Shown here piece by piece: positions 11,540 to 48,631 of a stretch of DNA of 48,631 bases. Numbering within the stretch: the first letter of the stretch is position 1; the number at the start of each line of letters is the position of its first letter. The notes beneath the pieces are model-generated. The model was not told where the DNA came from. It searched no databases and saw only the letters and a list, made by a program, of their open reading frames with translations. Source of the DNA: a virus; the IMG/VR virus record IMGVR_UViG_3300002175_000003, positions 1 to 48,631 of that record. One strand, written 5' to 3'. A program made the position numbers and the translations under genes.

Positions 11540-11650
11540 TTTAACTACTCCCTAATTAGATACCGTCCCTATTGACGGCGCATGCATTTAATAGCTGCAT
11601 TAATTAGTGCGGTCAACTCAACAAGCTCAAATTTTTTATCTTCAGTAAAA

Positions 11651-12259: not shown

Positions 12260-12442
12260 TTGCCTACCTTATGATACCAATTTAATTAAGTCACTGCTAG
12301 AGAGGGACTTATTGAATTATGAATGAAAAGTTGTTTGTTTCTATCATAACGGAAGGACAAAAATAGAACATCTGGCTAACCTATTGATTCCTCGTCAACC
12401 GAAAGTTGCTGAAAAAACGAAGTTTTTCAAATATCGATTCGA

Positions 12443-12478
12443 CCAAAACCGACTTAGAGCGGTCTTTGGCCTGTTTTT
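12443..12478 (+). terminator. Putative rho-independent terminator (plus strand)
   Basis: 9-bp stem with one bulge (CCAAAACCG / CGGTCTTTGG), 8-nt loop, then CCTGTTTTT. Convergent with the stop of 12492..12971. Confidence 0.45.
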
Positions 12479-12491
12479 ATCAATACCTCCG

Positions 12492-12971
12492 CTAATCTGA
12501 GGCAATTCTCCTCAAACCCGACTCTAATAATCGGTGCATTTTGAGCTTTGGCACGCTTCTGAGTAGCTGATGAAATTGCACCGGCGCAAGCCGATTAGCT
12601 GCCCAAAGTAATTTTAGTAGCGTGCGGTCGTTAAAAATTGTGCCAATAATTCCCTCGGCGCGGCCAATTTTCATTCGCGCTTTAATCCGCTCAATCGGAT
12701 TATTGGACGCTCTAAGCGTGCACTCTGCAGTCTCATATGAAATGCAGGAGGCCATTACGACGTCGCACAGGTGCTCAATCGCCTTAGCTTCTTCGTAGTG
12801 GAGCGCGGTCAATCGAGGCGCCCTGACCGGCTGCAAAGTCGAGGTGCCCGATTTAATCTCCGGTCCGATAATCTCCACCTCGCGCGTACTATTTATTGCG
12901 GCATATAATTCCTGATTATTGGAATATAATTTTAATTCATTGCTAAAACTATATGGTACTAGATTATTCAT
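12492..12971 (-). CDS. hypothetical protein (159 aa); C-terminus resembles the C-terminal catalytic-E region of a DDE transposase (remnant?)
   Basis: Start set to the ATG at 12971 with AGGAGC 7 nt upstream. SNNPIERIKARMKIGRAEGIIGTIFNDRTLLKLL resembles the NPIER..K.....G.F......L.L block of IS256/IS5-type transposases. AT-rich codon usage. Confidence 0.45.
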   Translation of the reverse strand: MNNLVPYSFSNELKLYSNNQELYAAINSTREVEIIGPEIKSGTSTLQPVRAPRLTALHYEEAKAIEHLCDVVMASCISYETAECTLRASNNPIERIKARMKIGRAEGIIGTIFNDRTLLKLLWAANRLAPVQFHQLLRSVPKLKMHRLLESGLRRIASD

Positions 12972-13032
12972 GGCGTGGGCTCCTATATCATCGTACCTTT
13001 TTCTACACCAGGGTACGGTGGGGTTGGCGGGA

Positions 13033-13044: not shown

Positions 13045-13076
13045 CGGTCGCCGGGGCAAACTGAACCTCTCCCAAA

Positions 13077-13217
13077 CCCCAATTTTTAGACCCCTGAATT
13101 TTAGTAGGGTACCAGGGTAGTCACCCCAATTTTTAGACCCCTGAATTTTAGTAGGGTACCAGAGTAGTCACCCCAATTTTTAGACCCCTGAATTTTAGTA
13201 GGGTACCAGGGTATTCT
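13077..13217 (+). repeat. Three tandem 47-bp repeats (CCCCAATTTTTAGACCCCTGAATTTTAGTAGGGTACCAGGGTAGTCA)
   Basis: Copies start at 13077, 13124 and 13171. There is one mismatch in copy 2, and copy 3 diverges in its last 4 nt. Confidence 0.95.
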
Positions 13218-16900: not shown

Positions 16901-19900
16901 TTGCTGCGGTCGCGGCTGGCTCCGTTGCCGCCCAGAACTCCCGCCCCGGCCCCCGAGACCCCGGAGTCTCCCCAGGAAGCTCAGGCCGGTCCGAAACTGG
17001 AATATGTGTCGAACATTCGCGTCAAAGACCGGCCTTATGTCGTGCATGAAACGCTGGCCGGGCAGATCAGGGAAGCCGCCAGACATGCGGGCATCGTGCG
17101 GGTCGTCGTCACGTCCGCCGGTCAGGACAGTGAAAAAACTCCTGGCGCGCGGCGTACGAGTGCCCATTCAGTCAACCATGATCTTGTCGCAAAGGATGGA
17201 AAAATTGGCGGCGGTGCGGCTGACGTGGAGCTTTACGCCCCCGACGGTCACAAGTTGCGCGTAGGCGAGCCTCGCGACGAAGATATGTTGAAAAAATTTG
17301 TCACGAAGGCGGCAGAATTAGGCGTATCGGGATTTGGCGGCAGCGCAAATTACCAGGATGGAAATTTACACGTAGGAGGCGGTGCGCGGCCTGAAACGCA
17401 TTATTGGGGCGGTCCGAAAGATGACGGCGTCCCGGCAAAATGGCTGCCGGGCGCGGCAAAAGAAGGCTGGGAACGAAGGGGCTGGACGGTTAAAGGGCCT
17501 GCCGATCATGGTTTCACCTCGGTCAACCCGCGTGTAGCGCTCCAGCACCGCGAGAGTTTGAGAGCGCAGAGTGGCGAGGTTGAAGCATCGCCGCCCCGGC
17601 AGTACACCCCTGAGGAAAAAATACAGAGGTCGCGTGCTGCCGATGCCCATATCGAGAGTTATGGCGACCCTAATAAAGTACGGTTGTACAGAAACAGGGA
17701 AGGGAAGTTAGTAGAGAGCCAGTACAAAGGCTTGTACCAACTCTCCAGCAAGCAATTCGACGAGTACAATAATGATGTCCGTACGGGAGCGTGGAAAGGC
17801 GAGCCGGTCGTTTTCGGCGGACCAAAAGGCGAAGAGGGCTGGCGCAATCCGGCGTACCAGGAGCGCGTCAAGGAGTGGCGCGAGGCAAAGGACGGAAAAA
17901 TACTGGAAGCCGCGGGGTTCGAAAATAATGGTCCGAACCGGTACATTTTACATAACCAGGGAGCTGCCGGCGGTCCTGCGCTGTTGAGAGCGGCTAAAGA
18001 AAACCCGAATGCACCGGCGTGGCGGGTTGTCAAAGAAGCAGCGCCGAAGGAGCCTGATCCTCTGACGAACATCTCCGGCAACGTTCTGGCGAGCGACTTT
18101 AAGCGCTTCACGGGGCAGGAATGGCCCGGCAGCGCCAGCAAGGTGACCGCCAGTCAACTCGTCAAATATTGGACGAACAAGCACGAGTACCATCAAGAAT
18201 TGGCGGCCAACCCAGGGGCTGCCGTGCGGTCGATGCGGGCACGGCAAGCAGAAGGTGAGGGCGAGGCCGCGGCTGGCGGGATGCTTCGCCGAGGCATTCG
18301 CGCGGTGGGGAGAGCATTGAGCGCGACGAGTTCGGCGCCGGCACGATATGGGGAACCCGGATCGGCGCAACGGCAGGCGGCCGATACGGCGGCAATGCGG
18401 TGGAGAGACGAGCACCCAATCTTGGCTGCGATGACGGAACCGACTGACTACGGGACGCGGCCGCCATCAGAAGTCGAGAGCTACAACCAAGGCATGCAGC
18501 AAGCGGCGAAAATGGTTATCCCGGCAGCCGCGGGCATGGCCGTGGCGCCAATGGGCGCTGCCCTTGTGGGCGGTACCGGCTGGGGCGCGACGGGCGCTGG
18601 CATGGCCGCCGGCGGTTTGGCGGCTGGGGGAACCCAGGCGGGCATGAACGTGCTGTCCGGGCGGCCAGTTGGCGAGAACGTAGTTTCGCAGGCAATTTTT
18701 GGCGGCATACCGGCCGTGCAAGGGACCAAGATTTCTAGCGCCCTTGGTCGGGCGCTTCTCAGTGGGGTCGGCGGGGCTGCCGAACCTGCCATCGAGGGCC
18801 GGGGACCGTACGATATCGGCCTCGCTGGAGTGGTCGGGGCCGGGCTTGGGATCGCTGGTGAGACGGTTGCGCGTGCTGCCCGGGCGCTCCCGAGGTCGGC
18901 GGCCTTGTCCATCGATGCGCTGGGCGAGCGCATGCAACAGGCGTTTGCGGAAATGCCCGAAGAGGCGCAGACGACCGTAAAGAGGCTCCTCGATACGGCG
19001 ACGGATGGGCGAACGCGAGCAGCGCGCGAAAGGGCGCATGCCGAATTGGCGCGAAGGTTCAACATGTCGCCGGAAGAAGTCAGTAATTTCAGGGCGCTTG
19101 CCGATACGCAAACAACACTTGCCGGAAAGCGGCTGATTGAGAAGATTACTGGTGAGCCGGCGCGTCCGCAGACGCCCGAGGAAGCGTCATTTAACTTGCG
19201 GGAAACTGCCAGAGGTGCGTTGAGCGACGCGAGAGCAGACTATCGTTTTGTAGAAAACAGCATCAATAATCGTACCGCGGCGTCGATACGTTCAAACCAT
19301 GCAGGACAGATTGAGCCAACGAATGCGGCACATTCTAGCTACGTGAGGCTTGACGAGATAAATGCAAATACGGCACGACCGCCTGCGACCGGTACGGGGG
19401 CTCCGAGGCAACTCAACAACCGGGAAAAATTTATTCAGTTACGCGAGCTTCGCAGTGATATTACGGCCAGCGCCGCAGTAGAAGACGGGGTGAGAAAATC
19501 AGAGCTACTGAGAGCCAGAAACGAGGTAGACCGGGCAATCAGGGATCATCTTGGGAGGACAGTTCCATCTCATAGCGCCAGAGATTTGGAAATTATGCTT
19601 CGCAATGCCGACAGAAAATACGCAGAAGCAGCCGCAATGGCTGGCGAGCATTTCAATAACTTGAAGGCGGGCAGTCTTAATATGTACGACTTCGGCGAGG
19701 CGATCGTTCGCATGGTTGACAGTAAGTCTGTAAAAAATCCGCTATTGCATGGTTCGGATGCGGGGGAGGCACTCGTCAGAACGTTCTACGCTAATGCCAA
19801 CAGGTACCAAATACCAGCGGCGAGAGAGGCCATAAAAATAGGTCTGATTGACGCGGTATTCAGCAGTGCTCTGAAGAAGAAGGAAGAAATAACGAAGGCT

Positions 19901-20299
19901 GCAAACAGGTTTATAAATGGCGACCTTATGGGGGTTGCCGAAATAGTGTTCTCGCCGGCCGAGAGGAGACGCTTGCAGCACATTGCGGATAACCCCGAAC
20001 CGTACTACACGGCAAGACGCGATACAGGGTACGGTGGTCGTGGCGCCGTTGTAGGTGCTTACGCGACCGCGCACATGGTTCATGGGATTATTCCGGGTGC
20101 TGAAGTGGTTCCAGGGGCGCTAACTGGGGCGGAACGAATCAGGGCCATGGTTCTAAGTCGCCGAGCGAGTGACGTGCGAAAATACAGCGAATTAGCTTCT
20201 CGCCCGATGAGGCATTTTTTGAGCGAGACCGGTTCGATGATCGGTGCTGAAACCGGCAGAGACGTAAATGAGAGGACTCGCAGCCATGCTGTTCGGTAA
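13979..20299 (+). CDS. giant virion-associated multidomain protein (2106 aa): alpha/beta-hydrolase-like, LAS/M15-type zinc peptidase, SLT-like transglycosylase, Gly/Ala-rich TM segments
   Basis: Start at the ATG 13979 with GGGAGG upstream. Motifs: SHSLGS nucleophile elbow (~16570); SAHSVNH..GGAADVE..GNLHVG (~17000-17390); HIESYGDPN...GLYQLS (~17640-17760). Gly-zipper hydrophobic region ~18500-18870. P/T/Q linkers. Confidence 0.75.
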   Translation: MASGDLFDGEDQFEGGLYTPEKFEWKPYGSSTSSTPEPTPSPTPAAAPDAPLPRARPAIPAEDSPRTTQSSQTSEPGQSGQPISLAPSNPIQLTPTPSTPQTQAAQAQPVQTPTPQTQAELAKNSAAAKNLNEEREAYVKALASVDRQLATAQNKPLIFLKNLGGINTSYSDEDIAKLDARRGELFGKLQEIDKQIEALKTANTHASQMGVLPRTAGQNLESVYYDAGPKMAEGNVSTALNLARAKDDDTLGNEVKAAARNSYNNNLYKFLPALNRTLNSADAAVGELDKVAAAGQGRYDEARPALQAEFDRLTASAGVAEVKLPTGPGSALKAAGAVETLRYQLSAARQLWGSQLQQFSLQTSFTAPPAKDMKDVDAQWRPAFNVGNIVPGTGTIVIPEDSQKNPYVGLNLGTGTGAWVKTNNFDESPFGRDGQRSLASIDDEKRIRGNINSQANAQMLREGVAFSVLHSLTKAADKEGWDNASTVQHVKSQLDSLSRGGSRGAASTPGVAKFMERLNGLPQDMIDKIDTQLASFNSVLAGTPTGQRISNATIGQLKNAINNIYAARMDAIGSTLGGDAREAGSLGLPISRLGVSRDIQDVVRPHWEAGRRETLENLFNADYVVDSGGRLVLRQPMVTGVGEKPAERAWVKGYSPTWPDPFAEPAQTATQTPQAATQTPPATRTPQTPQTAEPTEEPEPRILYQEQQQPSPASSTSPEGGGALAMSPGLAAARAVTAPTTPTTPQPETPATPATPTTPTTPATQPEASNQWQRGMNPTAWYEGDKDRPIAYIAAGKKDAYIHRFGREEGEKRYQEDVRHLSETARARGAVPVVLAPTSDQASQQRELEKELQQARKDHRKAFVVSHSLGSYSARRLIRDMHYSDVVPEGNWIGTGITDRNEDVNNELRSHGARDHFDLPRAMAEKAWRERQSRAPEAAPGTPGASEAPNEQPQQIAFRSEEAGQPAKPMTPEALLRSRLAPLPPRTPAPAPETPESPQEAQAGPKLEYVSNIRVKDRPYVVHETLAGQIREAARHAGIVRVVVTSAGQDSEKTPGARRTSAHSVNHDLVAKDGKIGGGAADVELYAPDGHKLRVGEPRDEDMLKKFVTKAAELGVSGFGGSANYQDGNLHVGGGARPETHYWGGPKDDGVPAKWLPGAAKEGWERRGWTVKGPADHGFTSVNPRVALQHRESLRAQSGEVEASPPRQYTPEEKIQRSRAADAHIESYGDPNKVRLYRNREGKLVESQYKGLYQLSSKQFDEYNNDVRTGAWKGEPVVFGGPKGEEGWRNPAYQERVKEWREAKDGKILEAAGFENNGPNRYILHNQGAAGGPALLRAAKENPNAPAWRVVKEAAPKEPDPLTNISGNVLASDFKRFTGQEWPGSASKVTASQLVKYWTNKHEYHQELAANPGAAVRSMRARQAEGEGEAAAGGMLRRGIRAVGRALSATSSAPARYGEPGSAQRQAADTAAMRWRDEHPILAAMTEPTDYGTRPPSEVESYNQGMQQAAKMVIPAAAGMAVAPMGAALVGGTGWGATGAGMAAGGLAAGGTQAGMNVLSGRPVGENVVSQAIFGGIPAVQGTKISSALGRALLSGVGGAAEPAIEGRGPYDIGLAGVVGAGLGIAGETVARAARALPRSAALSIDALGERMQQAFAEMPEEAQTTVKRLLDTATDGRTRAARERAHAELARRFNMSPEEVSNFRALADTQTTLAGKRLIEKITGEPARPQTPEEASFNLRETARGALSDARADYRFVENSINNRTAASIRSNHAGQIEPTNAAHSSYVRLDEINANTARPPATGTGAPRQLNNREKFIQLRELRSDITASAAVEDGVRKSELLRARNEVDRAIRDHLGRTVPSHSARDLEIMLRNADRKYAEAAAMAGEHFNNLKAGSLNMYDFGEAIVRMVDSKSVKNPLLHGSDAGEALVRTFYANANRYQIPAAREAIKIGLIDAVFSSALKKKEEITKAANRFINGDLMGVAEIVFSPAERRRLQHIADNPEPYYTARRDTGYGGRGAVVGAYATAHMVHGIIPGAEVVPGALTGAERIRAMVLSRRASDVRKYSELASRPMRHFLSETGSMIGAETGRDVNERTRSHAVR

Positions 20300-21049: not shown

Positions 21050-21080
21050 TTTTGCATGTCTCCTATGCAATTTTTTCATA

Positions 21081-21106
21081 CCGTACACGTGTACGTGTGT
21101 ACGCTT
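21081..21106. promoter_or_regulatory. Operator-like cluster: 14-bp perfect palindrome CGTACACGTGTACG (21082-21095) overlapping GTGTGTACGCTT (21095-21106, reverse complement AAGCGTACACAC)
   Basis: Read directly. Sits in the divergent intergenic region between 21049(-) and 21154(+). Confidence 0.7.
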
Positions 21107-22513: not shown

Positions 22514-23122
22514 ATGACAATCGACGTACCGACGCAATTTCCGAAGTCGATAAAGGCTCAATCCGCCCGGATTGGGCAGTCTCGTTTTCGCAATGTCGAG
22601 GGGATTTCCTCAACTGGCCAGCAAACGATCATATCCGAGTTGCAGACGCTCATTACGTCGATCAACACGGCCAACAATACGCTAACGGACACGAAGACGC
22701 TGGTACAGGGCATTGACGGTCTGTTAAAAAACGGCGCACCCGGAACGGTGTTGACGACAACTTCGGCAGGCATCGTGTGGGCGCCAGCGGAGTCATATTC
22801 GTTGGATGAACACCTGACTGGCGGGGTCTGGATCGACGGGAAGCCGATTTATCGCAAGACGATAGACACTGGCGGGTTGCCGAACGCGACTTCAAAAAAC
22901 GTTACGCACAACATTACAGGATTGACGTGGCTCGTAAAGATGTTCGGCACGGCGTTTGATTCGCTGGCTCAGGCTGATTTCATTGTGTTGCCGCTGGTTG
23001 TGTCAACTGCGATAGCAAATAACGTATCGCTATCTTTTTACCCAACTTACGTTTCACTGGCGACCGCTGTTGATCGAACATCGTACACACGATCTTACGT
23101 GACACTGGAGTACGTGAAGTGA
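22514..23122 (+). CDS. tail fibre protein (202 aa) with [10 protein letters not shown]-type C-terminal domain
   Basis: Start at the ATG 22514. The C-terminal ~110 aa are paralogous to the C-terminus of 24942..25676 (both end YVT(L/I)EYVK). Confidence 0.7.
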
Positions 23123-24939
23123 GAACATGGTGGAGCACGCTCACGCCAGGGACCGGCATCATCATTGATAATGATGGTGTTATTTCAGTTTCTGATATCG
23201 TGCAGGGGCCTCCTGGCGAGCCCGGAGCGACTGGACCGGCAGGACCACAGGGGCCGCAAGGGTTGCAGGGGCTTCCTGGCGAGCCCGGAGCGACTGGACC
23301 GGCAGGACCACAGGGGCCGCAAGGGTTGCAGGGACCCCAAGGCGATATCGGACCGGTCGGTCCTCCCGGGTCGGCGGCCAATATCCTTCCGTGGTACGTC
23401 AATTCTAGCGGCCGGCTGATTAATCAGATTACTACTGATATCTCTCCGATTCCTGGAGTGACAGGAGTTTTTCAAGCTTTTTCAATTACAGGCATTGGCA
23501 ATGGCATCGGAAACTACCGTTATGGTAATGATACTGTCGGGCCGGATTTGGTTTTTGCTAAATCTCGTGGTAGTGCTATTAACACAATGGCTGATGTCAT
23601 TGATGGGGATATTTTAGGTGATATTTATTTTTACGGAGCTTTTAATGACGCATGGCTACAAAGCATGCGTCAATACGTACAAGTTAGCGGCACTCCTACT
23701 TCTGCTGGTGTTCCGGTTCAGTGGGGCATAACAGCTTATGACGCTAATCGCGGTGCTACTGTTAGTCGGTTGGGGCTAGATAATAAAGGCACGCTAAATG
23801 TTGGCGCAATCGGCCTTCCGAATACGCAAGGTCTTGAGATAAATAAGCCGATTTATATGGCCGAAAACGCGGTCACTTATTCGGTCATTTCACGCGGCAG
23901 TGTCGGGACGACGGGGCAGGGCGATCTAAACGTATTCACGTCTGGCGTGGATGCGAAGACTGGAACGGCTGTGTCAAATTGGCGCGAGTTTCACGCTTCT
24001 GGCCCTTCTGTGGCGGCAGGGCAGGCGCCGACGATCACCAATTTCATCGGCCTTGACGTTATTCAGAACTACGATGCAGGAATTACCAACCGGTACGGTG
24101 TTCGTAGCCAACTTAACGTAACTTCAAACCAGGTAGCGCAACCGCGCTGGAATTTTTATGCTAGCGGTAACGCGCCGAATTATTTGGCTGGTGATTTTGG
24201 GGTGGGTGCGGGTCGCCATATTAATTTTGGCGTGCCTGCAAATATTGGCGATGTAGGTTACGGCATACGCGATAACGCCGGAGCGATGGAGTATAAAAAC
24301 TCCGGTGGATCGTGGCTGCCGCTGCGCCAGTCGGTGGGGATGCAGACATTTTATTCGTCAAGCACTTTCACCGTCCCGGCCGGCGTGACGAGTATCCGCA
24401 AACTGCGCATTTGGGGTGCTGGCGGCGGTGGCGGCGGTAGCAGCAGCGCCAGCACTTCCGGTGGTGGTGGCGGAGGCGGCGGTGCCTACGCGGAGATTGG
24501 CAATGTCGCGGTGACACCAGGCCAGCAAATCGCCGTGATGGTCGGTGTCGGCGGCACCGGCGGCACGGCAACCCCGACTGACGGCGGCAACGGCGGATCG
24601 AGTTCGTTCGGTGCCACACTGACAGTGGCAGGAGGCAACGGCGGCGCTGGCACCTCTACCGCGACGGCCGGGGATGGCGGTGCTGGCGGCACGCCGGCGG
24701 CGGGGGCGTCATTTAGTATGTCGGGCAGAAAAGGCAATTCAGCGTGGGTCTTACAGCCCGGCGTCGTGGCGATGGGTCAGGGCGGTCAATCGTTCGGGAC
24801 GACTCAAACTGGCGTTTCATTGTCGGCGGTCGCAACCGCTGGATACCCCGGGATGTTCCCTGGCAGCGGCGCCAATGGCGGTGTTCTCGGTGGCGCTGGC
24901 GGCAATGGCGGCAACGGCGTCGTGATCGTGGAGTGGTGA
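23119..24939 (+). CDS. tail fibre protein with collagen-like G-X-Y repeats and glycine-rich C-terminal domain (606 aa)
   Basis: GTG start overlapping the previous stop (GTGA), with GGAG upstream. (GXY)n region. Poly-Gly/GGNGG-rich C-terminus. Confidence 0.8.
23212..23337 (+). repeat. Exact 63-bp tandem duplication inside the collagen-like region
   Basis: 23212-23270 is identical to 23275-23333 and encodes [20 protein letters not shown] twice. Confidence 0.9.
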
Positions 24940-27101: not shown

Positions 27102-27742
27102 GCGGCTTTGACACGAGCGTATCGACGACAACCGCGCGGTTCATGGCAAAACAGTACGGTTCGATCTTGCGTGGTTACGGACCGCCGGTCCAGCAAGCAG
27201 GTGTTGCGGGCGACCTCTACATCGACGTGGTGACGTGGAAGCTTTACGAGAAGCGCGAGATAAACGGCATCCATGCGTGGGGCCACCATTTGTGGGTCGT
27301 GCCGGCACTCTACCGGTACGGGCTCAAATGGTTCGGGCCGTCGCGGCCGACGAACGATCTTGGCGTCGTGTCTGACTACTACTTGCAGTGGAGCGGCTGG
27401 AACAATTACGGCATGTGGCCGACGATTTGGGGCCCAAAAAACTGGTACGGCTGGCCCGAGAACGGCGACGGTCCTGGTCTGAAAATCGCTCTTGAGAACG
27501 CAGACAGCGTGCTGCCAGTCGGGCTGGTCGACGAGGGGCCGCGCGAGCAAGATATTGCGCCGCTGCAATTGATCGACACGGGGCTGCTTGATGAGATCAC
27601 CGTTCCGGTTCCGGTAACGGCGAATGCCGGCGAGTTGATCCTGCAACTCGGGCTGCAATCCGGCGGCTTCCTGTTCAAACTTCCGCTTAACCCGCTATGG
27701 CCGGTCGAAGACCGCCACCACATTGAAGGGCCTGGACGATGA
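27098..27742 (+). CDS. hypothetical virion/tail protein (214 aa)
   Basis: ATGA coupling on both sides. Confidence 0.55.
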   Translation: MSGFDTSVSTTTARFMAKQYGSILRGYGPPVQQAGVAGDLYIDVVTWKLYEKREINGIHAWGHHLWVVPALYRYGLKWFGPSRPTNDLGVVSDYYLQWSGWNNYGMWPTIWGPKNWYGWPENGDGPGLKIALENADSVLPVGLVDEGPREQDIAPLQLIDTGLLDEITVPVPVTANAGELILQLGLQSGGFLFKLPLNPLWPVEDRHHIEGPGR

Positions 27743-29070
27743 GTTACACGGCACAGACGGATTTCCTTGGCCTTTGGCGTATGACCTCGACGGGCGTCGA
27801 GAAGGCCATGATGCCGGGCCTTGACTGGTGGGTTGCGGCCATGGGCCGAGCCGGCCTGATCAATGTTTTTGTGAGCAGGACTCCGCCGACGGTGAACCAG
27901 CCAACCACGGCGTGGTTCATGCCGGCGAGCCCGTCATATGCGGCTGAAGGCGTGCTGTTCCTCTGGAACGGCAACCAGTACGTGCCGGCAACGCCTGATC
28001 TGTTCCTGCGCCTGATGATGTTCACCGGTCTGGGGCTATCCGGGCTGCTCGATGACTACTTTGGCGACGAACAAGGTTCGATTATCTACCGCGACATTGA
28101 CGTATGGAAAGCGCTCCCGCCTGGCAATCCTGGCGCCGTGCTCACCACAATGGGGTTGCATGCCAACCCGATCTGGCGCGCCATTACGGCTTCTCTCGTG
28201 GCGAATGACAGCACGGCGCCCGGCACAACGGTCGCCGACGCATTGAGTTTGCTTCGGGATGCTTTGAGCCTGCTGACGAGTGACGATATCCACAATGCGT
28301 CAACTGTTCCTGGCGTGACGGTCACGCAAGCCCTTGATGCGCTCGTTAATGCCATTAACGGTATTGATAATGCGCACGTTCATAACCTTTCGAATGTTCC
28401 CGGCGCCACGACGAAGGACGCCCTGAATGCGATATATGCCAACCCATTTGCGGGTTTCGGCTACGGCACGGCTGGCTACGTGCTGACTTCAACCGGTCCC
28501 GGTACGCCCCCAGTCTGGAAGTCGCTTTCTTTGGCGATTGGGACGAGTGGCGTAACGAACCAAAGTGGCGTTCCTGGTGCTACGGCGACAGATGCGCTGA
28601 ATTACATACAGGGTGAAATTGCCGCGCTCCAGCAGGGCGGCTCCGGCACCCCTTCCCCAAGTAATAGATGGCCTGTGGGGTGCAATTGGGTTGTGCCTCC
28701 TTTTCTTACCGTCAACTTTGACAATAGTCCCAGCGGAACTATGTTCATCGTTGAAACTTCACTTGTAATTCTTGACTACATTGGAGTGGGGCAGGGAATT
28801 TACTACAACAACGCTGGTGCATTCGACAGGACGCCGGACACTACGGGTAACGGGGGTATTACAGGTAGAGCTTTTACCCAGTCAGATGTCGCACAATCTA
28901 GGTCTGGCGTAATAACGGGAACGTATTCAGCGGTACCTCCCGTACCTGGTACATGGATTGGCGTGAATGGTACTCCAGATGAAGTTGTTATGATGTCATA
29001 TAATGTCGATCTTACACCTAACAAAAAATGGGATGGCAGCCCCTCAACCCAATTTGTACGTATTGCATAA
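27739..29070 (+). CDS. tail fibre protein (443 aa) with switchable C-terminal receptor-binding tip (currently tip A)
   Basis: Four N.S.VPG.T..DAL repeats. N-terminal ~95 aa paralogous to 32902..33513. The constant/variable junction coincides with the left inverted repeat at 28634-28692. Confidence 0.8.
   Translation: MSYTAQTDFLGLWRMTSTGVEKAMMPGLDWWVAAMGRAGLINVFVSRTPPTVNQPTTAWFMPASPSYAAEGVLFLWNGNQYVPATPDLFLRLMMFTGLGLSGLLDDYFGDEQGSIIYRDIDVWKALPPGNPGAVLTTMGLHANPIWRAITASLVANDSTAPGTTVADALSLLRDALSLLTSDDIHNASTVPGVTVTQALDALVNAINGIDNAHVHNLSNVPGATTKDALNAIYANPFAGFGYGTAGYVLTSTGPGTPPVWKSLSLAIGTSGVTNQSGVPGATATDALNYIQGEIAALQQGGSGTPSPSNRWPVGCNWVVPPFLTVNFDNSPSGTMFIVETSLVILDYIGVGQGIYYNNAGAFDRTPDTTGNGGITGRAFTQSDVAQSRSGVITGTYSAVPPVPGTWIGVNGTPDEVVMMSYNVDLTPNKKWDGSPSTQFVRIA
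28634..28692 (+). repeat. Left inverted repeat (59 bp, perfect) of the putative invertible segment
   Basis: AGGGCGGCTCCGGCACCCCTTCCCCAAGTAATAGATGGCCTGTGGGGTGCAATTGGGTT equals the reverse complement of 29824-29882. Confidence 0.95.
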
Positions 29071-29440: not shown

Positions 29441-29453
29441 GCCGCCTTTTTTT
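29431..29453 (+). terminator. Rho-independent terminator (plus strand)
   Basis: GGCGGCC-TA-GGCCGCC palindrome followed by T7. Confidence 0.8.
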
Positions 29454-29823
29454 ATGCGATACGTATAAATTGATTTGACGGATAAGTTGGTTTGAAACCA
29501 CCGATACTAGAGCCAGAGAGTTGCACTTCGTATTTTGCCCCGTTTACCCCAATCCATGTTCCATCGACAGGCGGTATACTGTATGCAGTCTCAAATATCG
29601 ATGGCGCTATCGCGATACATTGCGCCCGCGTAAATGGCGCAGATGCACCCATTATGTCCGTGTAAAAGGTACTGCCTATATTTTTACCGTCCATGCTAGG
29701 TTCAGCAGTAGCTGCATAGAGATGGTAAAAAACATACACCGTATCGGGAATTATACCGGTAAAAACGATAGCGTATGCCGTGGCGCTTCCTGCACTCGGG
29801 TCTCCAGTAGTTTCCCATGCGAT
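29452..29823 (-). other. Promoterless, start-less alternative fibre tip cassette (tip B, 124 codons)
   Basis: The frame stays open through the right inverted repeat. Shares GCNWV, P(V)(P/D)GTWIGVNG and a terminal QF(V/I)RIA with tip A. No SD or ATG of its own. Confidence 0.75.
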
Positions 29824-29882
29824 AACCCAATTGCACCCCACAGGCCATCTATTACTTGGGGAAGGGGTGCCGGAGCCGCCCT
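29824..29882 (-). repeat. Right inverted repeat (59 bp, perfect)
   Basis: Reverse complement of 28634-28692. Overlaps the terL stop codon (29881-29883) by 2 nt. Confidence 0.95.
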
Positions 29883-31416
29883 ATCTCGGTGTGTCGTAGT
29901 CGTTGACGGCAAACGTGCAGATCACCGCGTCGAGGCGGTCGGGAGACCGGCCAATTTCTGCCCGTATCTTTTCTTTCGGCGTAACGAACAGGCGCGCATG
30001 CTCGTCGCGACGACAGCCGGCGGTCCCCCATTTGTATGCAGCGCATTCTTCTTGCAGCATTTTGTCATTCTTGACCGAGACTGACCCGTTCAAATACTGG
30101 GCAAATTTGAAGTGAAGCTCAGCGCGACGATTGGCAAACTGCACGGAATTATGGGCGCCAGAACCGAAGCTGACCGGGATGATCCTGTTCCCCCGGTCGC
30201 GCATTCGCAGCCGGAGAGCGTCGACGAGACCCTTGCCGATGCCGGTCGAGTCAATGCAGATGACGTCCATATCGTAGCGTTCGTACGCGGCCCGTATCCA
30301 GTCTGCCTGGACGTTCTGGTCGGAATTTTTAATCTCGCCCCAAATTCTGTTCCCGATGCAGCACCCCTGGCGGTCGCAGACGAACGTGCTGTCGGAACCG
30401 TCGCCGGCTGGATCGACAGCCAGAATTTTCAACGTTCCTTCCGTCGGCGGAACCCGAGACAGCATGGCTTGCTGGACGAGTGACGGCGGGAAGAAATCGA
30501 GAGTGCTGTCGGCCAGAAAACATTCGGAATAAGTGACTGGAAATTCTTGTCGCGTGAGCCGATGAATGCTGTCAGGCGTGCCGCCGTTCATTGTGGCGAT
30601 GTCGTAGTTCTTCCGATAAAACCAGTAAGTTTGCGGCGGCGTCAACCTATGGATGCGACTGTACTCGACGAGTTCAAGTGGAGGCTGCCACTTATCCGGA
30701 ACCTCTTCTTTGTAGTCCACCATGGCGGTCCATGGTAGAAAATGCATGCGCCAAAGACCGGTGTTGTTTTCCCGATGCGCCTGTTCGCACATATTGAAAA
30801 ACATGCCGCTCGCCCCGTTGCCGGTCGATTCCATGAAAATTTCCGTGCCGACTTGATCGAGCACGGTCTGTAAAATTCCAGACGACAAGTCTTCGGTGTT
30901 GTCAAAAAAAGCGGCCTCGGAAAAGTGTAGATAGTGAGTGTCTTCTGACCGCCCGATGTTCCCGCCTTCCGCCGACGAAACGCGGTAGGACGATTGGAGT
31001 CGGCTGAAAATCAACTCACGTGCGTTTGAGGCGCCGGTCACTGGCCGGATAGGTTCCGGAAGTTCTTCGTAGAATGTGCGGACTTCGCGATGAAGGTGGC
31101 TGGCGCTATCGTTACGGTGAGCCACAACGTGGGCTCGCCGGCCGCGTTTTGACAAGACTGCGTGGAAGAACCGCGCGCTGATGTAGGTTGAAACGCCCAT
31201 GCGGCGCGCTTTTGGGACAAGCGCGCGCACGCGGCCGTACGTTTTCCTCTCCAATTCGATACGCTGGTGGAGAATTTCTTGTGCTGGGTTGAGGATAAAG
31301 TGGATGCGTCGGCCGCCTTCGCGCGGCCGAATCATCAGGAATCTTTCGCGGTACCAGTTGAAATCGCAGATGCGGTCACTGATAGCTTGCGGGGTTGCCC
31401 TTTCCCATGGCCACAT
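29881..31416 (-). CDS. terL: terminase large subunit
   Basis: Walker A-like KARRMGVST. Nuclease-domain motifs AVDPAGDGSD, IDSTGIGKG and C-terminal SPDRLDAV. Confidence 0.85.
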   Translation of the reverse strand: MWPWERATPQAISDRICDFNWYRERFLMIRPREGGRRIHFILNPAQEILHQRIELERKTYGRVRALVPKARRMGVSTYISARFFHAVLSKRGRRAHVVAHRNDSASHLHREVRTFYEELPEPIRPVTGASNARELIFSRLQSSYRVSSAEGGNIGRSEDTHYLHFSEAAFFDNTEDLSSGILQTVLDQVGTEIFMESTGNGASGMFFNMCEQAHRENNTGLWRMHFLPWTAMVDYKEEVPDKWQPPLELVEYSRIHRLTPPQTYWFYRKNYDIATMNGGTPDSIHRLTRQEFPVTYSECFLADSTLDFFPPSLVQQAMLSRVPPTEGTLKILAVDPAGDGSDSTFVCDRQGCCIGNRIWGEIKNSDQNVQADWIRAAYERYDMDVICIDSTGIGKGLVDALRLRMRDRGNRIIPVSFGSGAHNSVQFANRRAELHFKFAQYLNGSVSVKNDKMLQEECAAYKWGTAGCRRDEHARLFVTPKEKIRAEIGRSPDRLDAVICTFAVNDYDTPR

Positions 31417-31637
31417 TATTTTTTGCCGGTTTTTATTTCCAAGCCAAAAATTAGCCCGAGGCCAATGAGCAGGGCGTTCCCGAGGTCGATGCTTTCAAAC
31501 CCTGGAATCTCAACCCCAAATACTGACCGCGCGGTTGCGGCAGCAATAACTGCAAGACCGGCGACGGTCGTTTTCCAGTGTATGAGACATTGCTGAAGGA
31601 ACGAGGATTTTTCGGGTGTCGTAGGGGTATCGGTCAT
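31416..31637 (-). CDS. small membrane protein (73 aa, 2 TM); holin candidate
   Basis: Start at the ATG 31637 with AAGGAGAA 7 nt upstream. The stop overlaps the terL ATG. Confidence 0.5.
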   Translation of the reverse strand: MTDTPTTPEKSSFLQQCLIHWKTTVAGLAVIAAATARSVFGVEIPGFESIDLGNALLIGLGLIFGLEIKTGKK

Positions 31638-31657
31638 AGTTGCGTTCTCCTTTGAAT

Positions 31658-31670
31658 CCGTACACACTAC
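31658..31670. promoter_or_regulatory. CCGTACACACTAC copy of the strand-switch motif
   Basis: Lies in the 37-nt divergent gap between 31637(-) and 31675(+). Confidence 0.5.
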
Positions 31671-31674
31671 TACC

Positions 31675-32091
31675 ATGAAGCGTCTTGAGCATCAATTATC
31701 CGTTATTTTTCGTCCGCCGGGCGGTGCGCCGTTTCGTGTGGATGTCCAACGCCTTCGGGACGCCGTAACAATAGCGAGGCTAGCAAACATGAGTGCTCTG
31801 TCTGAAAAGCTTGCGAAAGCCCGCCAAGTCGCGAGCGACTTGCGCGGAAAGATGATGAGGGATGCCGATGCCCTGCTGGCAAAAGGCGAGAAGCTTGACA
31901 AGAAGCGAGAAGAAGTTTTTGCCGCGCACCAAGCCGATCTCGACACTTCAGCAGGCGAGCTTGACGCTCTTGACCGAGAGCTTGACCTTTTCTCCAACGA
32001 GCCCCGCCCTACGCCGCCTACCTCAGGTGGCGTTGCCGGTGGCGGAACGGATATTAATTGGGTGCGGAATGATCCAAAGAGCGTTATCTAG
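31675..32091 (+). CDS. coiled-coil hypothetical protein (138 aa or shorter)
   Basis: ORF track. Charged heptad-like central region. The start is uncertain (an internal MSALSEKL is possible). Confidence 0.45.
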   Translation: MKRLEHQLSVIFRPPGGAPFRVDVQRLRDAVTIARLANMSALSEKLAKARQVASDLRGKMMRDADALLAKGEKLDKKREEVFAAHQADLDTSAGELDALDRELDLFSNEPRPTPPTSGGVAGGGTDINWVRNDPKSVI

Positions 32092-32431
32092 CCTGGTGCT
32101 GGCGATCGTGCTGTCGGGGTGCCAGCACGTAAGCATCCCCGACCACCAGCCCGCCGGCTGGCACCGGCCGGCCAAATGGTGCGGCTGGTGGCTGGCGACT
32201 CGACACCGCATGTTTGATCGCCGCCTGTGGAAAGCTTCTGAGTGGCGCCATGTTGGGATGCCGGCCCCCGGTCCCGCACCAGGAGTCATTGGCGTCCTCC
32301 CCCATCATGTTTTCGAAGTCGTTGAAGCAGGGCCACCTGGCTTCGTTCTCGCGATATCGGGCAACTACAGGCACGCCGTCCGCGAGCATCGGCAATCGAC
32401 TCGTGGGGTTGTCTGGCGGCGACTACCGTGA
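32069..32431 (+). CDS. lipoprotein with NlpC/P60-like (TIGR02594-like) cell-wall peptidase domain (120 aa)
   Basis: Lipobox LSGC after a hydrophobic h-region. WCGWW...ASEW..G......PG.IGV...HHV..V.......ISGNY..AV pattern. High GC3. Confidence 0.55.
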   Translation: MIQRALSSLVLAIVLSGCQHVSIPDHQPAGWHRPAKWCGWWLATRHRMFDRRLWKASEWRHVGMPAPGPAPGVIGVLPHHVFEVVEAGPPGFVLAISGNYRHAVREHRQSTRGVVWRRLP

Positions 32432-32944
32432 ATACGGATCGTAGTTGACTGGCGGGTACCAACTTCCCATGAACAATTCCGGCTGGCGGGTGACCGGAAC
32501 CCGCTGGACATGGCCGCCATCAATGAACGAGCTTGTGCGACCGGTCCCCCAGTCAATGCCGGAGACGAGTTTGAACTGTCTCGCCAGATCGCGTAAAAAT
32601 AAGTAGTATTTAATGTCTCCTTGGTATTTCCCGCCTGAGAATATCCCGAGGTCTGCCGCAACCCCGTAGCCATGCGTTCCGACGGTCCGGAGTTGCGTGG
32701 CTTTCTGCATGAACAGCCTGGATTGCCGGGCTTGCGACCGGTAGGTTTCGAGGACTCGTACGTCGATACCGCGCTCCTTGGCCTTGTTGGTGAGCGCCTG
32801 GACGGCCGCGCGCGTGCCGGGCTCCAGCATGGCAAGGTCTTTGCAGATTTCGCCATCTTTCCGGAACCATGGCGAGTTGCGAATGACCTCCTGGTAGAAA
32901 TTCACACCAGCACCCAATTTCCAGTTGCGGCGGTCGCGAACCAT
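32423..32944 (-). CDS. endolysin, peptidase M15 (VanY/LAS-type) family
   Basis: YRSQARQ, HGYGVAADL and DGGHVQ zinc-ligand motifs. The start may be internal, because the ORF overlaps the upstream gene by 43 nt. Confidence 0.75.
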   Translation of the reverse strand: MVRDRRNWKLGAGVNFYQEVIRNSPWFRKDGEICKDLAMLEPGTRAAVQALTNKAKERGIDVRVLETYRSQARQSRLFMQKATQLRTVGTHGYGVAADLGIFSGGKYQGDIKYYLFLRDLARQFKLVSGIDWGTGRTSSFIDGGHVQRVPVTRQPELFMGSWYPPVNYDPYSR

Positions 32945-38427: not shown

Positions 38428-38443
38428 GGCCTACCTCTGCACG

Positions 38444-38457
38444 AAGCGTACACACTT
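38444..38457. promoter_or_regulatory. AAGCGTACACACTT copy of the strand-switch motif
   Basis: Identical 14-mer to 44176-44189. In the divergent portal/capsid intergenic region. A TTGACG-N18-TAAAAA promoter-like pair lies downstream at 38474-38503. Confidence 0.6.
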
Positions 38458-38555
38458 TGTCAACGGCTGAATTTTGACGAGGTTACACCAAGCGTGGTAA
38501 AAAGATAAATCGACGTTCAACACGGCCCTGGAGGCCGCCACAGGGGAATCAAACC

Positions 38556-43623: not shown

Positions 43624-44055
43624 TTATATCTCTATTTTTTCCAGGTATTTTTCGAAGTCGAAAAATGACCGGCAAACAAAGTAGTGGTACCGCGGCCCAA
43701 GGGCGGTCCATCGCCGCTGGAATTCTTCTTGCTTTGGGGACAAATGACCGCCGGGGGCCTTAAGCTCGATGGCGTAGCTCCCAGTTGCCGTGAAGAAGAG
43801 GAAGTCTGGGCAGCCTGGAACGACACCCATGCGCTTGAGTTTGGTCGCGGTCGCAACGTCGCGCGGTTCGCCATTTGGCACGTGAAAAATCACAAGCTCA
43901 GGACGGTTCTTCTGGACCCACTGCCAAATGTGCATGTGGATTGTTTTTTCACGAATCGGGCGGGATAAGGCCCTTCGTCTTAAGCTCTCGCTCTCGATTT
44001 TCGACATACCAGCGAATTGCCTCTCTTCCAGCACTCGTATGCGTTTCGACGTCAT
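43624..44055 (-). CDS. VRR-NUC domain nuclease
   Basis: GVVPGCPDFLFF...YAIELKAPGGHLSPKQEEF matches the PD..(D/E)xK VRR-NUC signature. The 5' end overlaps the upstream RHH ORF, so the start is uncertain. Confidence 0.75.
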   Translation of the reverse strand: MTSKRIRVLEERQFAGMSKIESESLRRRALSRPIREKTIHMHIWQWVQKNRPELVIFHVPNGEPRDVATATKLKRMGVVPGCPDFLFFTATGSYAIELKAPGGHLSPKQEEFQRRWTALGPRYHYFVCRSFFDFEKYLEKIEI

Positions 44056-44155
44056 CGTGGTTCCTGACGATGTAATCGAGCCGACGCCAAAGTGAGACCG
44101 GCAACCGCACGGTCATCGTCTTTGAGGTCTTCCCGCGTTTTGACTGCGTTTCCAT
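43949..44155 (-). CDS. ribbon-helix-helix (CopG/Arc-like) DNA-binding protein
   Basis: TMTVRLPVSLWRRLDYIV beta-strand/helix pattern. Start chosen at the ATG 44155 so that the conserved motif at 44176-44189 is intergenic. The ATG at 44116 is also possible. Confidence 0.55.
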   Translation of the reverse strand: METQSKRGKTSKTMTVRLPVSLWRRLDYIVRNHDDVETHTSAGREAIRWYVENRERELKTKGLIPPDS

Positions 44156-44175
44156 GATGCCGTACCATACCGGCA

Positions 44176-44189
44176 AAGCGTACACACTT
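44176..44189. promoter_or_regulatory. AAGCGTACACACTT copy of the strand-switch motif
   Basis: Identical to 38444-38457. The flank CGGCAAAGCGTACACAC also matches the 21095-21112 copy. Confidence 0.6.
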
Positions 44190-44205
44190 CAATCGGGCGA
44201 ACACC

Positions 44206-44892: not shown

Positions 44893-45413
44893 GGACGTGT
44901 CTTTTCCCAAATGCAGCAATCTTGTGGCTCGTTAGGGTTGATATTTGGCAGTATCGCAAATTTTTTTGCGACCCCAACAAGCCGGGCATTCGATTTTTCA
45001 AACACCCGGTTTACCTTGGTGTTCTCCACCGCGCTCCACGCCCATACGCGATGGATGTCCCGATGCGCCAAGAGCCATGCCGTAAAAGGGATGCCGAATA
45101 AGCGACCGGCGCCTTTCGACGGTTGCGCAAATTTGAGACCTATGCACACTCCACGGTCACTGAATTCGGCGGTCACGACGCCGACGAACTCTCCGTGTAG
45201 TGTGATGGCAGCCCCGTAAACGCCGAGCAACGCGCCCATGTTCCACTCAACGACGGCTTTTCGGGCTTCTTCGAGACTCGTATGTATGGCGTTTGGCATG
45301 TACCGCATGACGCGCGGGTCGCCAGTGATGCGGTGATAAAGGTCAACCGCGTCGCTGCGAATGAGCCCGCGCGTCACAAAGGGGCCGAATGATTTTGCCC
45401 GAATGTCAATCAT
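44889..45413 (-). CDS. GNAT family N-acetyltransferase (RimJ/RimL-like)
   Basis: Acetyltransf_3-like N-terminus and a C-terminal W..VENTKVNRVFEKSNARLVG motif. Confidence 0.75.
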   Translation of the reverse strand: MIDIRAKSFGPFVTRGLIRSDAVDLYHRITGDPRVMRYMPNAIHTSLEEARKAVVEWNMGALLGVYGAAITLHGEFVGVVTAEFSDRGVCIGLKFAQPSKGAGRLFGIPFTAWLLAHRDIHRVWAWSAVENTKVNRVFEKSNARLVGVAKKFAILPNINPNEPQDCCIWEKTRP

Positions 45414-45808
45414 ACGCCATGCCTGCTCAGGTAGGCGTAAACTGCCTCGCGGATAATCTCAGTTTTGTTGACTTCTTTGCGCTTCGCTAACTGACGAATA
45501 CGCTTCATCGTTCCGCCCACAAATCTAGCGACCGTCTCTTCGCCGTAGAGAAGCGGGCGCCCTCGCGGATTTCTTGCCTTCTCGCGCTTCACCGCGCGCT
45601 CTTCTTTTTTCTGGGCGCTGCGCTTGACGGCTACCTTCATTTTTATTTTTCTGACGACTTTCCGGGCCTTCTTCGCGGCTCCGTACGGGTCAAGCGGGTC
45701 AACTTTTGGCTTACTTTTTCGCTGTTTCTTTTCCACCTTTGCAACCTCTTCTGCGGTGATGGGACGGGGGAGCGGCTCAGGCATCTTGCTGAAAACATCC
45801 GTGTCCAT
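45410..45808 (-). CDS. lysine-rich protein with C-terminal ribbon-helix-helix domain (132 aa)
   Basis: K/R-rich N-terminal ~85 aa. C-terminal ETVARFVGGTMKRIRQLAKRKEVNKTEIIREAVYAYL fits the RHH pattern. 4-nt overlap with the GNAT start. Confidence 0.6.
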   Translation of the reverse strand: MDTDVFSKMPEPLPRPITAEEVAKVEKKQRKSKPKVDPLDPYGAAKKARKVVRKIKMKVAVKRSAQKKEERAVKREKARNPRGRPLLYGEETVARFVGGTMKRIRQLAKRKEVNKTEIIREAVYAYLSRHGV

Positions 45809-47836: not shown

Positions 47837-48568
47837 TTATCTGGGCGGGAACGGTGACGCTGGACCTGACGAACCGCTCCCGCCCCAGGGCGCCCCTGGC
47901 GACATGCCCGCACCAGGGGCTGCCCCGAATCCTGCCGGCACGGGCGCGGGGGGAGGAGCGAAGTTCCCGCCGCCGGCGAACCCTGTCACGTTGAGGCCTT
48001 GGGCACGGGCCTTTTCCATCAGTTCTGCCGGGTTCGCGGCATTGCCGATGTTTATTTCCTCGCCGCGCTGCAAGAACAGCACAAGATTGATGTAGAGCTT
48101 CACCGCCATCGCGTTGGTGCTGTTTTGCGCGGCAACAACCGACACGGCGCACACATCGCCCGGCTTCACCATGGCTTTGTTTGGGAGGTTGACCACGGCG
48201 CCGTTCTGAATGATGGCGGTCTTAATCGGGAAATTTGAGTTTCCGCCGAATGTCCAGTGACCGCGAGCCCAATCGGCCGGAGCGCGGCCGGGAACGGGAG
48301 TGTCGCCGTCTCTGACGGGCCATTGGATGGCGGAAAAGGGGACATTGGACATGGCACCTTGCCACAATTCGTTGCAGGCTTGAGCGAGGCCCGCGAAAAT
48401 CGGCTCGTCCCACCACGCACTTCGTGTTTTCTGGGCAATGAATGCCGCCAGATAGGTGGGTTGCTGGGACGGTCGCCCCTGATACGTCGTAGCGGGCTCC
48501 CAAAGATTGCGCATCCCGAAGATGCGACAACCAAATATGTCTGCGTGCTTCATCAATTTACTGGCCAT
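47837..48568 (-). CDS. ssDNA-binding protein, T7 gp2.5-like / DUF2815
   Basis: Position between DUF2800 and PolA once the genome is circularised. KPGDVCAVSVVA...VKLYINLVLFLQ beta pattern. Gly/Pro-rich C-terminal tail. Confidence 0.6.
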   Translation of the reverse strand: MASKLMKHADIFGCRIFGMRNLWEPATTYQGRPSQQPTYLAAFIAQKTRSAWWDEPIFAGLAQACNELWQGAMSNVPFSAIQWPVRDGDTPVPGRAPADWARGHWTFGGNSNFPIKTAIIQNGAVVNLPNKAMVKPGDVCAVSVVAAQNSTNAMAVKLYINLVLFLQRGEEINIGNAANPAELMEKARAQGLNVTGFAGGGNFAPPPAPVPAGFGAAPGAGMSPGAPWGGSGSSGPASPFPPR

Positions 48569-48631
48569 GTCTCGTGTCCTTTCGATACGTCGATGATTTC
48601 TACTGGCATCATTTCAGAGGGGTGTCAACCC
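48532..48631. repeat. Terminal direct repeat, identical to nt 1-100
   Basis: Direct comparison. Confidence 0.95.

Follow-up and report, generated by a model that had tools for sequence, protein, structure and literature searches.

The viral genome analysed here, IMG/VR record IMGVR_UViG_3300002175_000003 (48,631 nucleotides; hereafter the window), carries a short imperfect palindrome, the box, in several of the gaps from which its structural operons diverge. Identical first and last 100 bases (1–100 and 48532–48631) establish the window as a complete genome of ~48,531 bp, either circularly closed or terminally redundant. Replication functions—DNA polymerase A, an Enc34-type single-stranded DNA-binding protein, an exonuclease, a helicase, and a primase—occupy a minus-strand block, and the structural genes are arranged as a patchwork of divergent operons. 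Portal, capsid, terminase, tail-fibre, and ejection assignments are PHROG matches (the plus-strand gene at 44206 matches PHROG "DNA ejection"), and gene starts were set by reading the sequence together with a crude coding-potential gene caller. Four boxes lie between the divergent gene pairs 21049 (minus)/21154 (plus), 31637 (minus)/31675 (plus), 38427 (minus)/38556 (plus), and 44155 (minus)/44206 (plus); a fifth copy of the core is intragenic, and one box adjoins the small gene RHH-A, whose product, a ribbon–helix–helix (RHH)-like protein, may bind them:

38444–38457, plus-strand match: box copy 1, exact AAGCGTACACACTT, in the divergent gap between portal and capsid genes, 17 bp from the portal ATG
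44176–44189, plus-strand match: box copy 2, exact AAGCGTACACACTT, in the divergent gap between RHH-A and the ejection-protein gene
21093–21106, minus strand: box copy 3, AAGCGTACACACGT, a 13/14 match, in the gap between small membrane-protein genes (minus) and the tail-module gene 21154 (plus)
31656–31669: box copy 4, ATCCGTACACACTA, with the core CGTACACACT at 31659–31668, in the 37-bp gap between genes 31637 (minus) and 31675 (plus)
23082–23090, plus strand: fifth core copy, exact CGTACACAC, within the 3′ end of gene 22514–23122
43949–44155, minus strand: RHH-A, a 68-aa ribbon–helix–helix-like protein (METQSKRGKTSKTMTVRLPVSLWRRLDYIVRNH...), candidate box-binding regulator

The box reads AAGyGT ry ACrCTT and is symmetric at 10 of its 14 positions; its conserved core is an 8–9 bp palindrome (CGTACACA in the window) inside the 14-bp pseudo-palindrome. 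It is found in both orientations, in the window and in relatives alike, and the remark of an earlier, first-pass annotation that orientation cannot be assigned is largely moot for a symmetric element. The box coordinates given there are all correct, and so are the placement of each of the four boxes between divergent genes and the shared flank CGGCAAA(A)GCGTACACAC at the 21095 and 44176 copies. The head-to-head junction at 42633/42632, where no copy had been reported, indeed has none; its gap is zero.

The first-pass annotation had judged the 14-mer far too long to recur by chance, which is wrong for one exact pair: window-sized Markov-simulated sequences contain ~18 repeated 14-mers (SD 4.6), and some two dozen isolated pairs attributable to chance are present in the window. 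Matches to the 14-mer with up to three mismatches are marginally enriched (7 versus 2.7 expected; 5 of 100 shuffles as high). The shorter words behave differently from this expectation, with the 9-mer CGTACACAC occurring 5 times against 0.11 expected (0 of 100 shuffles reach 5) and GTACACAC 5 times against 0.57. Divergent gaps amount to ~620 bp of 48.5 kb, or ~1.3% of the genome, and contain four of the five core copies. The significance of the box comes from this core enrichment, its location in divergent gaps, and its conservation, not from one exact 14-mer pair.

The fifth core copy lies 29 nt 5′ of the tail-fibre gene start (23119); its role is uncertain because no counterpart was seen at the same place in two relatives, L110 and L111. 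Two one-mismatch core copies, CGTACACAA at 11748 (plus) and CGTACACAT at 12016 (minus), fall in a 952-bp stretch without open reading frames (ORFs) at 11540–12491, in a part of the genome of lower GC content (0.42 for 12001–13000), and may be weak extra operators or chance matches. No box is present at a further divergent junction, the large gap that separates the early block on the minus strand from the plus-strand genes starting at 13271. This gap holds three tandem 47-bp repeats (ACCCCAATTTTTAGACCCCTGAATTTTAGTAGGGTACCAGG...) at 13076–13216, possibly iterons or a control region for early genes.

Neither the 10 kb surrounding the site nor the portal/capsid gap had a nucleotide match among GenBank phages, and the nearest GenBank capsids, ~35% identical, belong to HTVC023P-like, Roseobacter, Alcaligenes, and Caulobacter phages. 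Metagenomic relatives with capsids 75–83% identical are numerous, have genomes of ~50 kb, and come mostly from soil and rhizosphere samples. A capsid scan of genome contigs found no prophage relative, and a literature search returned no description of either the motif or the phage group. The exact 14-mer of the window is absent from all relatives compared (designated here by locus numbers, L001 onward), and an exact scan of IMG/VR gave 89 singleton matches in unrelated contigs, a chance-level outcome in which no contig had two. The first-pass annotation had named the corresponding gaps of related phages as the place to check the motif; the exact word fails there, a homologous box occupies the same gaps, and the finding survives.

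Box sequences among the relatives fall into lineage-specific types. In the closest relative (L105/L099; capsid 83% identical), the box at the portal gap is AAGTGTGTACACTT; this 6-2-6 inverted repeat differs by a single substitution from the window box read as its reverse complement. Group a loci (L005/L124, L107, L140, L112, and L127) carry the perfect palindrome TGTATACA, extended to GTGTATACAC (the form in L140) or AAGTGTATACA. Group b loci (L001, L003/L004, L109, L110, L111, L132–L135, L138, and L139) carry TGTATGACA/TGTCATACA, often as paired units 12–17 bp apart. Tandem units at this spacing occur in L003, L109, L138, L139, and L107, and also in the window at 21078–21106, where a partial second copy (core CGTACAC, 21083–21089) directly adjoins the 21093 box.

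The junctions that carry boxes in the relatives are those of the window: portal|capsid, RHH|ejection, the terminase-module gaps, and the region 5′ of the 21154 homologue. Portal-gap boxes are at the equivalent place in L105/L099, L005, L107, L140, L003, L109, L138, L139, and L001, and terminase-module gaps are occupied in L005/L124, L140, L003, L109, L138, and L139; L110 and L111 have their own box type 70–110 bp 5′ of the 21154-gene homologue. In five loci analysed with database gene calls (L107, L140, L109, L138, and L139), all exact and most one-mismatch copies fall in divergent gaps, which make up 1.7–4.9% of the locus, and the same preference for non-coding sequence recurs in eight more loci, whose ORFs were called crudely.

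Two more distant loci that cover the region, L136 and L137, have neither an RHH-A homologue nor an intergenic box. In L137 (capsid 46% identical), a single strand carries all genes from the terminase side past the capsid up to one for a 1377-aa protein. Since this locus lacks divergent junctions, RHH-A, and the box alike, divergent operons and the box may share a common origin within the clade. Gene order also varies: the terminase/endolysin module (~29881–32944) is inverted relative to the portal in L003 and L005 and has the window orientation in L105, and operons are evidently reshuffled within the clade.

RHH-A, for the first-pass annotation merely a landmark, is now the main lead. Its homologues, 27–44% identical, stand next to a box in 12 of 12 distinct related loci that have the gene, and in the window and all 12 the box lies 20–60 nt 5′ of the RHH-A start, positional evidence that places an operator-like site in the presumed regulator's own promoter. 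Nine lineages (the window, L005, L107, L140, L004, L109, L138, L139, and L135) have the arrangement TTGnnn-17-TAnnnn with the box at the start of the spacer: a -35-like hexamer (TTGAAG, TTGACC, TTGCAA, TTGCGA, or TTGACT), 0–3 nt, the box, a -10-like hexamer (TATGGT, TAGACG, TAGACA, TATAAG, or TATGTA), 6–10 nt, and the ATG; a Shine-Dalgarno sequence is lacking. When these nine upstream regions are aligned (MAFFT), only the ATG and the box core TGT.T.AC provide invariant columns. Because there is no Shine-Dalgarno sequence, the RHH-A mRNA is probably leaderless, and the upstream layout is the picture that would be expected of a leaderless, autoregulated repressor gene. Promoter-like elements around this and the other boxes of the window are as follows:

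44164–44192, minus strand: inferred RHH-A promoter, -35 TTGAAG (reverse complement of 44187–44192), 17-bp spacer, -10 TATGGT (reverse complement of 44164–44169)
38435–38463, minus strand: inferred portal promoter, -35 TTGACA (reverse complement of 38458–38463), 17-bp spacer, weak -10 GCAGAG (reverse complement of 38435–38440)
38474–38502, plus strand: putative promoter of the capsid gene, TTGACG-17-GTAAAA, 16 bp from the right-hand end of the box
31640–31677, plus strand: possible promoter of gene 31675, TTGCGT-17-CACACT-6-ATG, whose -10 falls within the box; a Shine-Dalgarno sequence is lacking

In the putative RHH-A promoter the spacer starts with the box core and the -10 ends 8 nt before the ATG (44155). 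In the putative portal promoter the spacer consists of the whole 14-mer plus CGT, and 7 nt separate the -10 from the portal ATG (38427). A -35 was thus overlooked when the first-pass annotation reported that no conserved one accompanies the motif: on the opposite strand, TTGACA abuts the 38444 copy and TTGAAG overlaps the 44176 copy. A TTGACA-type hexamer abuts the portal box in L105, L005, L107, L140, and L109 as well, and equivalents of the whole portal promoter are readable in L105, L005, L107, L140, L003, and L109. The -10-like hexamers there are purine-rich and could be ribosome-binding sites, which makes the portal promoter less secure than that of RHH-A. A generic promoter consensus scan of the window finds none of the promoters with weak -10 hexamers; one of its plus-strand candidates, TTGACT-17-TACCAT at 44140–44168, was set aside because it is not conserved in L005.

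On the other side of the portal gap, the capsid promoter is conserved as TTGAC(A/G)-17 in L003, L105, L107, and L109. Its distance from the box ranges from 12 to 26 bp among relatives; we therefore rejected a direct coupling of box and capsid promoter, which is probably absent, and the box would be positioned relative to the minus-strand promoters instead. Gene 31675, whose start is supported by homology to L003 and L105 proteins, is a possible leaderless candidate. At 21093, a possible minus-strand -10 (TTGACG-17-TACACA) shares bases with the box, and a possible plus-strand -35 directly adjoins the box. With promoters read from sequence, these sites have the layout typical of RHH operators, namely short units, palindromic or tandem, that overlap core promoter elements.

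The RHH-A family alignment has nine invariant columns, and we therefore take the ORF to be real despite its omission by automated calls: database gene calls (L141 and L107) keep the VRR-NUC nuclease ORF and omit RHH-A. In the window, RHH-A overlaps the 5′ end of the long VRR-NUC ORF (43624–44055) by 107 nt (43949–44055); the VRR_NUC domain begins only at residue 65, and a later nuclease start, e.g., Met41, would abolish the overlap. A word-index search with RHH-A returned no homologue.

The RHH-A sequence has the strand–helix–helix pattern of RHH proteins. Compared with the PDB, the family profile has RHH domains as its top matches—NikR as the best (E = 0.024), then the CopG-family entry 6xrw (E = 0.033) and SvtR (E = 0.5)—in alignments that span the strand, helix A, and helix B. 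An hhalign comparison of the family with CopG is in register at E = 0.004 with low probability. A single-sequence AF2 monomer model (pLDDT 67) has an extended N-terminus and helices at residues 20–32 and 41–61. We regard an RHH fold for RHH-A as probable.

Taking the invariant arginine of the strand as DNA-facing, we predicted the residues that would face the operator and compared them with the box types. They are T-T-R in the window (core CGTACACA), V-S-R in group a (TGTATACA), and M-S-R in group b (TGTATGACA), and M-S-R is kept in seven group b proteins that are merely 45–56% identical to each other. Pfam scans of ~60 window ORFs found no helix-turn-helix or other DNA-binding domain besides two RHH candidates, RHH-A and the following:

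45410–45808, minus strand: RHH-B, 132 aa, basic N-terminus and C-terminal RHH_1 domain; alternative candidate binder

The RHH_1 match of RHH-B (E = 9.6e-5, 22.6 bits) is over the curated cut-off. Its gene is directly 3′ of the DNA polymerase gene, and homologues were found in L005 and L107 only.

Very probably, the box is a regulatory site to which some protein binds. More specifically, we favour, with a probability of about 0.55, the box as operator of an autoregulated dimeric RHH repressor, most likely RHH-A, common to several late operons. Among the options offered by the first-pass annotation, an operator is preferred to a core promoter hexamer because the site is palindromic, occurs in both orientations, has an 8–9 bp palindromic core, and, at the two exact copies, lies inside the spacer of a putative minus-strand promoter. 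The sequences themselves show the sites, their enrichment and positional conservation, the promoter-like surroundings, and the co-occurrence with RHH-A; RHH-A as the binder, repression by it, and the transcript starts are predictions. The RHH-A gene would have its own sigma70-type promoter and yield an mRNA with little or no leader, and RHH-A dimers would put a two-stranded β-sheet into the major groove of the palindromic core, one dimer per core and two dimers at tandem sites. At the RHH-A and portal promoters the operator would fill the spacer immediately after the -35; at 31656 and 21093 it would overlap or abut -10/-35-like hexamers. A protein bound next to the -35 or over the -10 would shut out RNA polymerase, giving negative autoregulation and a co-ordinated damping of the portal, terminase-side, tail-side, and ejection-protein operons.

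One regulon would then unite the RHH operon (RHH, the VRR-NUC nuclease, and a further ORF), the portal operon, and the 21093 and 31656 operons, with the capsid promoter probably outside direct control. We speculate that an uncoupled capsid promoter suits the difference between low-copy and high-copy virion components. A wider proposal, which we hold only tentatively and consider on balance doubtful, casts RHH-A as the master morphogenesis regulator of an uncultured clade of soil podovirus-like phages, acting through single-dimer palindromes of 8–9 bp within promoter spacers, holding the low-copy virion and packaging operons (portal, terminase side, tail side, and ejection protein) at a set level, leaving the capsid promoter free, and re-tuned in specificity at least twice. 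Each re-tuning would have entailed matched changes of the β-strand and of every operator in the genome.

Several observations weigh against RHH-A as a repressor acting at the box. The same asymmetric 9-mer is kept in 5 of 5 window copies, which a purely symmetric binder would not need, and the strand/box covariation comes from three lineage groups and about two independent changes. L105 has no box at the junction equivalent to 31656, where its gap is just 9 bp. In the window the portal -10, GCAGAG, is a poor one, and this purine-rich sequence may instead serve as a Shine-Dalgarno element; the transcript would then start upstream and the box would lie in its leader. The relation of box to promoter is ambiguous at 21093 and 31656, and the sigma70-type readings throughout are assumptions. 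The RHH fold of RHH-A is backed by weak profile E-values (0.02–0.5): Pfam gives no match above threshold for the window protein and RHH_10 at E = 0.13 in 2 of 8 relatives, and Foldseek with the pLDDT-67 monomer model found nothing significant. A repressor of structural operons in a seemingly lytic phage would also need a relief mechanism, and none was identified.

The same site could serve an activator, RHH-A or another phage protein, that binds at about -22 to -26 and switches on late promoters with weak -10 hexamers. All box junctions are indeed in the structural/late half of the genome, the -10 hexamers beside boxes are weak (GCAGAG, TAGACG, TAGGGG), and the centre of the 21093 box falls near -41.5 of a possible plus-strand promoter, TTGCCG-16-TAAATC, a class II activator position. 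Yet a good -35 (TTGACA, TTGACC) and the optimal 17-bp spacer are kept, unlike in activator-dependent late promoters; a protein in the spacer beside the -35 normally blocks sigma region 4; the great majority of RHH proteins repress; and the distance to the strongly expressed capsid promoter (12–26 bp) does not keep helical phasing. The late promoters of phage P1, activated by Lpa, have an inverted repeat centred near -22 and no -35 hexamer. In the putative portal and RHH promoters the box centre is similarly placed, at about -22 and -25, respectively, but a consensus-like -35 (TTGACA, TTGACC, TTGAAG) is present, so the P1 arrangement is not what is seen; no Lpa-like protein was identified in the window, where no search aimed at Lpa was made. 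We consider activation rather unlikely. Recognition of the operator by another protein we also rate as unlikely; candidates are RHH-B and a host regulator, for example a repressor of the GntR/FCD family, which recognises short GT-Nx-AC palindromes. RHH-B has the significant Pfam match and lies in the early operon beside the DNA polymerase gene, but its homologues are confined to the window and group a, and group b loci still have boxes. A host regulator would fit the soil and rhizosphere origin of the relatives, and the box core fits GT-N2/3-AC by sequence; group a boxes have the same TGTATACA core as, and match 8 of 10 positions of, the operator of Agrobacterium fabrum Atu1419 (GntR/VanR), the 10-bp palindrome ATGTATACAT (PMC7797058). 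The window core CGTACACA differs from that site, however, and Atu1419 is a chromosomal winged helix-turn-helix regulator with an effector domain, of which no counterpart is encoded in the window: none of the ~60 ORFs scanned has a GntR-type domain. A host factor would also leave unexplained both the constancy of the box in the RHH-A promoter and the match between box type and strand residues.

Reading the box as a core promoter element, with -10-like TACACA, CACACT, or TATACA used possibly on both strands by the host RNA polymerase or an alternative sigma factor, seems improbable. It would account for TTGCGT-17-CACACT-6-ATG at 31656, which fits a leaderless start at 31675, for the box-contained TATGAC 17 bp from TTGAC(G/T/A) in L138, L109, and L139, and for the TTGACG-17-TACACA readable on the minus strand at 21093. 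Within the window, 31656 and 21093 are the only sites where a -10 reading is possible. On the plus strand, the two exact copies have no -35 at the 16–18 bp upstream spacing that a sigma70 -10 requires, and the consensus scan gives no promoter that uses the box as -10. Since the box comes directly after a -35 in nine lineages, it cannot be the -10 of that promoter, and neither palindromy nor occurrence in both orientations is expected of an asymmetric element. The last alternative, that the box has no function and reflects chance recurrence or a recombination remnant at module boundaries, could draw on the ~18 repeated 14-mers expected at random and on the inverted terminase module, a sign of recombinationally active junctions. 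Against it stand the 9-mer excess, the four copies in 1.3% of the genome, the homologous boxes at the same gaps in more than 10 diverged relatives, and module inversion end-points that do not coincide with box sites; the comparative data already bring it close to refutation, and we give it hardly any credence. Other roles were considered and rejected. In a leader hairpin acting at the RNA level, the arms would enclose a loop of just 2 nt, and the element does not keep to a single transcribed strand. LexA, CRP, and other familiar host-factor boxes do not fit, and restriction or methylation at GTAC or GTATAC would not account for the group b boxes, which lack these targets. A pac/cos or ori iteron function was dismissed because the copies are dispersed in promoters.

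As an operator of an RHH repressor, the box would have several known counterparts. In the immI region of phage P22, the RHH repressors Arc and Mnt act on operators in the overlapping divergent promoters Pant/Pmnt. The window resembles this system in having a small RHH-like gene by a divergent promoter pair, a pseudo-symmetric operator-like site between -35 and -10, and a regulator gene whose own transcription would be under the operator. It differs in that Arc and Mnt have one operator each, controlling one small region, that of the antirepressor, whereas the box occurs at four to five places and would govern structural, packaging, and ejection operons; no sequence similarity of RHH-A to Arc or Mnt could be detected, and their operators are unrelated to the box in sequence. 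The omega repressor of plasmid pSM19035 (inc18) is an RHH global regulator acting on heptad repeats in several promoters. The proposed RHH-A system would share with it one small RHH protein for dispersed promoters including its own, and it has a similarly short repeated unit, single or in tandem, in either orientation. Omega, however, belongs to a plasmid and reads 7-bp non-palindromic heptads in arrays of 7–10, and this phage has one or two 8–14 bp palindromes per promoter.

SvtR of the archaeal virus SIRV1 is a viral RHH protein that represses its own gene and a structural-protein gene. The candidate role of RHH-A is alike—a virus-encoded RHH protein for virion-protein genes and its own gene—and SvtR (PDB 2kel) is the weak profile match at E = 0.5; its virus is archaeal, with an archaeal promoter context, and the sequence relation is marginal. 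MetJ dimers bind the 8-bp palindromic met box AGACGTCT, and the RHH domains of Escherichia coli NikR read GTATGA half-sites. A single short palindrome for each dimer is thus the usual geometry of RHH proteins. Similarly, one RHH dimer would occupy each short palindromic or half-palindromic unit here, and the group b box TGTATGACA contains GTATGA. MetJ and NikR are cellular, ligand-controlled proteins with extra domains, unlike the 68-aa phage protein, which has no ligand domain. By sequence comparison, the system is not a member of the Arc/Mnt, omega, or SvtR families.

Most likely, the box represents a commonplace type of phage gene switch, here in soil phages of a group that lacks an earlier description. 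It leaves general concepts of phage gene control unchanged and is not conceptually surprising. It offers a first regulatory handle on a soil and rhizosphere phage group without a cultured or annotated representative, indicating promoter locations, a likely regulator ORF, and the operons of one proposed regulon. The three operator variants, each with its variant RHH strand, form a compact test set for RHH–DNA recognition and could supply orthogonal repressor–operator pairs for synthetic circuits. If the re-tuning proposal is true, the clade would be a natural series for reading the RHH recognition code.

Elsewhere in the window, a plus-strand gene at 13979–20299, 13% of the genome, encodes a ~2,100-aa protein with no PHROG or Pfam match. 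In the tail-fibre region, a perfect 59-bp inverted repeat (28634–28692/29824–29882) bounds 1.1 kb. Flipping the segment 28693–29823 would join residues 1–318 of a 443-aa protein (27739–29070), with the reading frame kept, to another C-terminus of 123 aa that a minus-strand ORF (29452–29841) encodes at present; both alternative C-termini have PPV(P/D)GTWIGVNG and end in QF(V/I)RIA. The arrangement looks like a host-range switch of the Mu G-segment type, and no invertase to go with the repeat was recognised in the window. The tail-fibre gene start contains a 63-bp tandem duplication (23211–23336), collagen-like by PHROG, and the two genes 5′ of the tail-fibre gene share a duplicated segment (22303–22397/22529–22623) at an offset of 226 bp.

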